This document shows positions 27,001 to 30,000 of a stretch of DNA of 64,000 nucleotides, one piece after another (position 1 is the first letter of the stretch; the number at the start of each line of letters is the position of its first letter). The position numbers were made by a program. This DNA is from Escherichia coli. GTDB taxonomy: Bacteria > Pseudomonadota > Gammaproteobacteria > Enterobacterales > Enterobacteriaceae. Location of the stretch: NCBI RefSeq assembly GCF_024298765.1, contig NZ_CP101210.1; one strand, 5' to 3'.

Positions 27001-30000
27001 GGTCACAACAATGAGGTTTTTATGAAAAAACTTATCGTTTCAAGTGTATTGGCATTCATAACATTTTCTGCGCAGGCCGCAGCATTTCAGGTCACTAGTA
27101 ATGAAATAAAAACAGGAGAGCAACTTACAACGTCTCATGTATTTTCTGGATTTGGGTGTGAAGGTGGTAATACATCGCCCTCATTAACCTGGTCTGGTGC
27201 TCCTGAAGGCACCAAAAGCTTTGCCGTAACTGTGTATGATCCAGATGCTCCTACAGGCAGTGGATGGTGGCACTGGACTGTTGCTAATATTCCAGCAACT
27301 GTAACATATTTGCCCGCTGATGCAGGAAGACGTGATGGTACAAAACTTCCGACTGGTGCTGTTCAAGGCCGAAATGATTTTGGTTATGCAGGATTTGGTG
27401 GAGCATGTCCTCCCAAAGGAGATAAACCCCATCATTACCAGTTTAAAGTATGGGCTCTAAAAACTGATAAAATTCCTGTGGATTCTAATTCCAGCGGAGC
27501 GTTAGTTGGTTATATGCTTAATGCCAATAAAATTGCAACCGCTGAGATAACACCAGTTTATGAGATAAAGTAGGGTAAGAGTATGCTGGCAAAAGATAAG
27601 ACTAACCTAAAGATTGAAGAAATACGGATGCATAAACATCATGAGATTCACAGGGTTAAGCCTCTTATGCCAGCTTTATGTCGTATCCGTCAGGGAAAAA
27701 AAGTTATCAATTGGGAGACGCATAGTCTAACTGTTGATAATAATCAGATAATATTATTTCCCTGTGGATATGAATTTTATATTGCGAATTATCCAGAAGC
27801 AGGTCTTTATCTTGCAGAAATGCTTTATTATCCCATTGATCTAATTGAAAAGTTTCAAAAATTTTATGCGATAACTGATCAAATTCGTAACACGACAGGT
27901 TTCTGCTTACCTCAGAACCCCGAGTTAATATATTGTTGGGAGCAACTAAAAACATCTATTTCCCGAGGCTTCTCAACGCAAATTCAGGAACACTTAGCAA
28001 TGGGCGTTCTACTTTCATTAGGAGCACATCATGTTAATTGTTTACTTTTATCAGATAGTAAACAATCATTAATAAGTCGTTGTTATAACCTAATGCTATC
28101 CGAACCTGGAACAAAATGGACAGCAAACAAGGTAGCGAGATATCTCTACATTTCTGTTTCCACATTGCATCGCCGTCTGGCAAGCGAGGGAGTAAGTTTT
28201 CAAAGTATATTGGACGACGTGAGGTTAAATAATGCGTTGTCTGCTATACAAACGACAGTAAAACCCATCAGCGAGATTGCCAGGGAAAATGGTTACAAGT
28301 GTCCTTCTCGTTTTACTGAAAGGTTCCATAATCGTTTTAAGATAACACCAAGAGAGCTAAGAAAAGCGTCCAGAGAGTAAAAGTATTTTATGAAGGAGCA
28401 ACAGCATCGATTTTTATTTTGGAAAATAAATACGGCATACTCAACCTATTGGAGTCTGAACAATCCGGTGACTTCTGCGCTAATCGGGGACGTTTCTAAG
28501 CACATATAATTGATACTATCTTCCTCCATCACAATTTCAGAAATGCACGTGTGATTTTTTTGCATCCGGCGTTTGGACTATGTGGAGCTCAAGAGTGGGA
28601 AAGTTACAAGAGGTTGAGGGGATAATTAAAGGGATGCTTATGACATTAGATATCCGGTTAGGTGCGGATATCGTTGTTATTAAATCTAGTTGATACGTTA
28701 AGATGCAGCTACTGACAAAATAGCCAGGACTCCACAAAACGCCTTTGTCGTAATACCTGACTGCAATATCTGGTCGATCTCGTCGCAGTAACCTACTCGA
28801 TACGCCTTTGAGGCTGTTTACCAGACTGGATATCGCCAGTTTGGGAGGATAGTTAATTAACAAATGGACGTGATCTGGTCCGCCATCCATTTCAACCCGT
28901 TCAGCTTCAAAATCAGCACATACATTTGAAAAGTAAGTGCGTAGTTTTTCTGTCGCGTCATGGTCAAAAATCTGACGTCGGTATTTAGAGCCTATCCCAA
29001 TAGGGTTTTGTTCCAGACAATGACACCACAGGCAAAATGCAGCATCGCCTCATAATTCTCGACCTTCTTCTCCCAACGAGTCAGGACACGGCGGTAGCGA
29101 TTCATCCAACTGTGTGTTCTCTCTACAACCCAGCGGTGAGCCTTAAAATCCGTGTATTTGATGGCCTCTGACTCATCCTTTCGTGACTGGATATGAGGTT
29201 CATAGCGACGACTTTTCAGATACGATTCCAGCCATTCCGCTTCATACCCTTTGTCCATGCACAACCGGAGCCTCTTGCCCGGTCTGCCCGTCTGGAGGGC
29301 ATCGAGCGTATCCGTAACCAACTTTATGTCGTGCGTATTTGCTCCGGCAACAACCAGTGCAAGCGGTAGCCCGTTCCCGTCAGTCATCAGACTGCGCTTT
29401 ACGCCCTGTTTCCCCCGGTCTGTAGGGTTCTTGCCTGTTTTTTTGAGCCTGCCAGCGGTGATTTGGTTATACAACCATCCATCGACAGCCACGACCAGTC
29501 AATAGAGTCCAACTGTTCGCAAGCAAGCAACCCATTTTACCAGAAGCGTTCAAATACTCCGGCATCTCGCCACTCCTGAAATCGGCGATGAGCAGAGCTT
29601 GACGAGCATATACCGGTGGCATTCAGCGCATTCCATTGGCAGCCCGTCCTGAGTACGAAGAAAATGGCGTTCATTGCAGCGCGATTATCAACCCGCTTGC
29701 GGTGCGTACCCAGCGGGTGTTGAGTTTTATGCTCCGGGATGAGTGGAGCCATTTTCTCCCAGAGTCCATCACTGATCTGCCACTTGTTGCCCGCCACACT
29801 TCGCCCTCAGAAATTATCATATTGTATTATCTGACAATTCCTTTTGGGATAGGTTCTTAGTAACGAAGACTAGGTGAACATGCTTCAGGAAAACACAATG
29901 CCTTCCGCGTCGGATATCGGTTTCTTTTTTCATAGGCCAAAGTATGATTTGGCCCATGAAACGACTACAGGCATTCAAATTCCGGTTAAGACCAGGTGGT

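Follow-up and report, generated by a model that had tools for sequence, protein, structure and literature searches.

An IS5-family insertion sequence nested in the truncated tnpA gene of an IS609 remnant in Escherichia coli

The stretch of the Escherichia coli chromosome analysed here (64,000 nucleotides of contig NZ_CP101210.1; the window) carries an insertion sequence (IS) of the IS5 family inside the tnpA gene of an IS605-family element. This nesting had been proposed from the sequence alone, and Pfam, NCBIfam and the RefSeq annotation agree with the two family assignments. The nested insertion is real and was correctly interpreted. It is also ordinary and not new; in at least 63 genomes RefSeq already annotates two IS200/IS605 tnpA fragments with an IS5-family pseudogene between them. 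The families of both elements are well described, and insertions of this nested kind are routine. Nothing was found against the nested-insertion reading. With a probability of about 0.96, we read the locus as a four-step fossil record of mobile-element activity, in which the landing of an element of the IS609 type would have been followed by deletions, by the IS5-family insertion and by a stop codon in the inserted copy.

The locus and its flanking DNA

The chromosomal order at this locus is fliE-emrE-ybcL-ybcM, the transposase fragments, yedK without its 3' end, and then yedF-yedE-yedD-amyA. Between nt 28705 and 30238 the minus strand carries a Y1/HUH transposase fragment, two transposase ORFs of the IS5 type and a short N-terminal transposase piece, while the plus strand carries the first 94 codons of TnpB. 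At the left truncation junction, three bases, GAT (nt 28702–28704), assigned to neither neighbour, lie between the ybcM flank and the IS609-like DNA, as placed by a three-way comparison with E. coli Nissle (L012) and IS609 (L003). At the right junction, yedK (SRAP peptidase, nt 30239–30664, minus strand), its 3' end missing, abuts the tnpB stump. This junction falls in an imperfect similarity of about 10 nt between tnpB and yedK (AAAACTyCTTC), which suggests that the two sequences may have been joined by illegitimate recombination.

E. coli Nissle has ybcM, a porin gene (annotated as ompC) and an intact yedK at the equivalent position. Its homology with the window (compared region L012 5322–7327) ends at nt 28701 and restarts at nt 30227. 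Therefore about 2 kb has been replaced by a 662-bp core of IS609. Relative to Nissle, the DNA that was replaced holds the 3' end of yedK as well as the porin gene.

In both the window lineage and Nissle, the genes emrE-ybcL-ybcM (window nt about 26100–28380) directly adjoin fliE. In K-12 these genes sit in the DLP12 prophage, so the group beside fliE appears to be a module of prophage origin that occupies another place on the chromosome.

The IS609 remnant

The intact IS609 of E. coli O91:H21 (L003), which encodes a TnpA of 143 residues and a TnpB of 402 residues, was used as the reference. Homology to it is limited to nt 28705–28986 (97.5% identity) and nt 29857–30238 (95.0% identity, L003 3159–3540) of the window, leaving 662 bp of about 1.7 kb. 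The original prediction had begun the structure at nt 28704, one base off the start of this homology. The distal piece of tnpA (nt 28705–28987, minus strand, 97.5% identical to L003 2879–3160) comprises codons 26–119 of the remnant, includes the HUH motif HVHLL and ends in ...GYFVSSC. The proximal piece (nt 29860–29933, minus strand) encodes MKKETDIRRGRHCVFLKHVHLVFVT followed by the first two bases of the split codon for Lys26. The tnpB piece (nt 29956–30238, plus strand) consists of 94 codons only, with an HTH_OrfB_IS605 domain (Pfam E=2e-16). The host tnpA matches Y1_Tnp with E=1e-18 and NCBIfam transpos_IS200 with 124.5 bits against a cut-off of 55. The TnpB family model gives the 94-codon piece 74.6 bits, under its cut-off of 100, as is expected of a fragment.

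As in intact IS609 (of the E. coli insP/insQ type), tnpA and tnpB are laid out divergently around the same intergenic region, with 95.0–97.5% DNA identity. Unlike intact IS609, the remnant is without both subterminal hairpin ends, the catalytic tyrosine of TnpA and most of TnpB. The homology ends inside tnpA at nt 28705 and inside tnpB at nt 30238, and the hairpin-bearing ends of the intact element (L003, about 2778–2797 and 4481–4500) have no counterpart in the window. The remnant tnpA lacks its last 19 codons; intact TnpA has the tail ...SSCGGAPISAIRQYIEQQQTPG, whereas in the window ...SSC is followed by unrelated sequence. From general knowledge of Y1 transposases, we take the Tyr in the IRQYIEQQ of intact TnpA to be the catalytic residue. 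The host gene thus keeps its HUH motif, and the 19 C-terminal residues with this tyrosine are deleted. On the other side, about 308 codons of tnpB and the element end past them are deleted, and the nuclease part is gone. No Rfam match to a structured RNA, including those associated with IS200/IS605, was found in nt 26000–33000 at E values up to 0.1.

In strains without the inserted IS, RefSeq calls the tnpA stump an intact 174-residue 'IS200/IS605 family transposase' (WP_001347174.1). In E. coli strain 7/2 this ORF (L002 3211–3735) corresponds to nt 28537–28987 plus nt 29860–29933 of the window. The last 55 residues of this protein are a read-through into non-IS DNA, and the region of the catalytic tyrosine is missing. 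The call of an intact transposase is probably an annotation over-call.

Ends and target site of the inserted element

The inserted element is an ISPrst3-like IS of the IS5 family, 869 bp long (nt 28988–29856), with its transposase on the minus strand. Its ends were set by aligning eight copies, the window IS and seven from unrelated contexts: the aroH-hemP spacer, mglC, espX1, a site beside a zeta-toxin gene, a YobI-type gene, the kduD-araE spacer and a Proteus plasmid. All eight copies are 869 bp, start with GAGCC or GAACC and finish with GGTTC. Each is flanked by 3-bp direct repeats, TAA in five cases and TTA in three, the window copy being one of the latter; not one of these independent insertions lacks the conserved ends or the 3-bp duplication. 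A 3-bp duplication of the TNA type is a trait of the small two-frame subgroups of IS5 in ISfinder, and the window IS and the seven other copies all have it.

In the window, the left copy of the TTA target-site duplication occupies nt 28985–28987. The right copy occupies nt 29857–29859, as supported by the copy alignment and by the overlap in the empty-site alignment described below. The terminal inverted repeat that lies downstream of the transposase gene, GAGCCTATCCCAATAGGG, spans nt 28988–29005 (plus strand), and the one upstream of this gene, GAACCTATCCCAAAAGGA, spans nt 29839–29856 (minus strand). The two agree at 15 of 18 positions. A search for the inverted repeat allowing up to three mismatches found exactly these two sites in the 64 kb, against 0.01 expected by chance, showing that the imperfect inverted repeats that had been noticed are real. 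Further copies of either element are absent from the rest of the 64-kb window.

The original prediction had placed the IS at nt 28987–29857, flanked by a TAG/TTAG repeat. An element does lie there, but with ends at nt 28988 and 29856, so that the proposed bounds are one base too wide on each side. Likewise, the string TTAG is present on both sides, but the duplication is TTA, and on the left the G already belongs to the IS, as its first base. Bounds of nt 28987–29857 with TAG, or of nt 28989–29856 with TTAG, give the same excision product. Both were rejected because the seven other copies fix the ends as GAGCC.../...GGTTC together with a 3-bp duplication.

Removing 872 bp in silico, that is, the IS and one copy of the repeat, rejoins tnpA in frame as ...FLKHVHLVFVTKYRRQIFDHDATEKLRTYFS... 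The rejoined segment, also given as ...HVHLVFVTKYRRQIF... and MKKETDIRRGRHCVFLKHVHLVFVTKYRRQIFDHDATEKLRTYFS..., agrees with the intact IS609 TnpA. The expectation that the two halves of the gene would join in frame is thus borne out.

The transposase and its nonsense mutation

The two transposase ORFs predicted for the inserted element are both present on the minus strand. The first part of the transposase (nt 29537–29797) contains a DUF4096 domain (E=9e-26) and is ended at codon 87 by a nonsense mutation. The catalytic part (nt 28992–29492), in the -1 frame, matches DDE_Tnp_1 (E=1e-16) and also DDE_Tnp_1_2 (E=2e-7). Once the stop is repaired and the frames are joined, the protein scores 276.8 bits with NCBIfam transpos_IS5_3, against a cut-off of 110. 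A run of seven A residues (nt 29438–29444, minus strand; sense TCA AAA AAA C) inside the overlap of the two frames is a likely site of -1 programmed frameshifting. Slippage at this run likely joins the two frames, a reading which draws on the run itself and on the annotation of intact copies, to which RefSeq gives a joined CDS encoding a single transposase with the remark 'programmed frameshift'. The two-ORF look of the window IS comes partly from its private stop, because intact copies encode one frameshifted transposase.

The RefSeq labels of near-identical IS transposases are inconsistent. Among the records compared, those of L004, L007, L009 and L011 differ from those of L008 and L010 in being either 'frameshifted' pseudogenes or a joined CDS with 'programmed frameshift', and the surroundings of the A7 site are alike.

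Base 29539 is A in the window copy and G in all six E. coli comparison copies. This G to A substitution, the single private difference of the window copy from the six, changes CAA to TAA and creates Q87*. For strain 104, which has an identical copy, the RefSeq note reads 'programmed frameshift; internal stop'. A third reading frame, or an indel, after ...ERFW was considered and rejected; the break is an in-frame stop resulting from the single base change. Every nested copy listed shares 100.0% identity with that of the window, against at most 99.9% for copies elsewhere, so Q87* appears to be specific to the nested copy. Judging from the in-frame TAA at codon 87, the window copy is dead: it cannot make its own transposase and is a member of the IS5 family by descent only. 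Since its ends are intact, a transposase supplied by another copy could in principle still move it.

Empty sites and the order of events

A natural empty site is found in E. coli strain 7/2, which has the arrangement fliE-emrE-ybcL-ybcM, tnpA-tnpB', yedK'-yedF with tnpA uninterrupted. Window segments 28300–28988 and 29857–30700 align to it with a 4-base overlap, TTAG, at the empty site. Such an overlap is expected, since both segments include one copy of TTA together with the G next to it. Strain 7/2 is exactly equal to the window where the IS went in, and the alignment has no mismatches besides two in the left flank. This site upholds the proposed order, in which the IS605-family element came first and the IS5-family element second.

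Of the 5,426 complete E. coli genomes, 1,110 have the tnpB'/yedK' junction, and in all of these yedK is therefore a pseudogene. The junction between the ybcM flank and tnpA' is present at 99% identity or more in 1,094 complete genomes. The nested junction between tnpA and the IS is present at full length in 63 of the 5,426. These 63 include isolates from chicken, pig, dog, human and river; the ten listed are 100% identical, and the nested IS is 100% identical across the 15 best records. From the counts and the sequence identity, we infer that the 63 IS-bearing genomes form a sub-lineage of the 1,110 that bear the stump.

The IS5-family element might instead have entered an intact, functional IS609, with the flanking deletions coming later. 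The window alone cannot order the truncation and the insertion, because the IS sits well away from both edges of the retained core and either order yields the same final sequence. The other genomes argue strongly for the truncation having come first. Genomes whose identical, doubly truncated stump is free of the IS outnumber those with the IS by about 1,050, and at the empty site the IS-free stump and the window agree exactly. If the deletions had come later, the DDE-type IS would have had to be excised precisely, with a single TTA restored, in the ancestor of those approximately 1,050 genomes, and precise excision of a DDE-type IS is rare. We consider deletion after the insertion very improbable.

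It is even harder to believe that the nested structure is an artefact of assembly or a chimera. Copies of an IS can in general cause misassembly, and no specific support for such an origin was found here. The whole of the left junction is present in 63 complete genomes that come from varied sources and were assembled independently, and neither the complete identity of the IS in the best records nor the clean 3-bp duplication fits an artefact.

Truncation followed by insertion is thus the preferred order, and the history of the locus would be as follows. An IS609-like element with divergent tnpA and tnpB would have entered between the prophage-like DNA on the ybcM side and yedK. Two-sided deletions would then have taken both ends of the element, the last 19 codons of tnpA and about three quarters of tnpB, along with the neighbouring porin gene and the 3' end of yedK, leaving the immobile core. 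The landing of the element and the mechanism of deletion we infer only, because the original intact IS609 was not observed at this locus. In a sub-lineage, the 869-bp ISPrst3-related element would have inserted into a TTA of the tnpA stump and duplicated it, presumably by the usual DDE cut-and-paste transposition. Comparison with the natural empty sites shows both this insertion and its place after the deletions. Finally, the IS copy would have gained the stop at codon 87 of its transposase.

The tnpA gene had been described as split by the IS. It is interrupted, but it was already non-functional beforehand, as seen from the 1,110 genomes that share the truncation, only 63 of which have the IS.

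An interrupted element must predate the interrupting one, and by this logic nested insertions of one IS in another serve as time markers. The same logic applies here, with the order confirmed by a natural empty site, and the case is conceptually no different. The data suggest no present function for the nested structure.

Relatives of the inserted element

When the whole element is aligned, the window IS has 92.5–93.9% DNA identity to copies on plasmids of Proteus, Vibrio, Providencia and Morganella, several of which RefSeq names 'IS5-like element ISPrst3 family transposase'. The window IS and ISPrst3 have in common the 869-bp length, the end sequences (GAACC/GAGCCTATCCCAA...), the 3-bp TTA duplication (for ISPrst3, in the Proteus plasmid copy) and a collinear transposase of 268 residues with the frameshift region. 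In contrast to ISPrst3, the window copy is of a separate sequence variant found in E. coli and Klebsiella, which has diverged by about 6% from the copies annotated as ISPrst3; 3 of the 18 positions in the left inverted repeat of the window copy are different, and it has Q87*. A literature search for ISPrst3 returned two passing mentions only. ISPrst3 has been reported inside a gene of another transposon, tnsB of a Tn7 derivative (PMC9058013).

Copies 99.7–99.9% identical to the window IS occupy up to 20–23 places in a single E. coli genome, and they are also found on plasmids of E. coli, Klebsiella and Shigella. Altogether the window IS type was located at 316 places in 200 E. coli genomes, 33 of the places being on plasmids. 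Plasmid copies of the type occur in nine genera, including Klebsiella, Proteus, Vibrio, Providencia, Morganella and Pantoea.

E. coli WP7-S17-ESBL-04 (L005 2987–3048) carries a miniature derivative of the IS, 62 bp long, between a pilV shufflon gene and a type III restriction gene. It consists of 14 nt of an ISPrst3-type left end joined to the final 48 nt of the right one: GAACCTATCCCAAA|AGAAATTATC...GGGATAGGTTC. It has no matching duplication, since TAA stands at its left and TTA at its right. The 48-nt part is 100% identical to nt 29809–29856 of the window, was seen in 24 of 60 sampled rows, and is unannotated in many E. coli genomes.

The variant diverged by about 6% might be an IS that is as yet unnamed in ISfinder and is currently multiplying in a small number of E. 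coli lineages, with the nested copy belonging to an older wave. We put this forward tentatively and think it rather less probable than the contrary, on the basis of the 20–23 places per genome, the presence on conjugative plasmids and the occurrence of the miniature derivative in many genomes. If it is true, the nested dead copy in the window marks an earlier wave of the same element.

Implications

The nested insertion has little importance beyond annotation. What it offers is a clean relative chronology for the locus, running from the insertion of IS609 through the flanking deletions and the insertion of the ISPrst3-like element to the nonsense mutation. It also carries a warning for annotation, namely that in IS-free strains the ORF of the tnpA stump is called intact although it is without the catalytic tyrosine. 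Furthermore, the nested IS, present in 63 of the 5,426 complete genomes, provides a presence/absence marker for a sub-lineage of the strains that carry the yedK-truncating IS609 stump.
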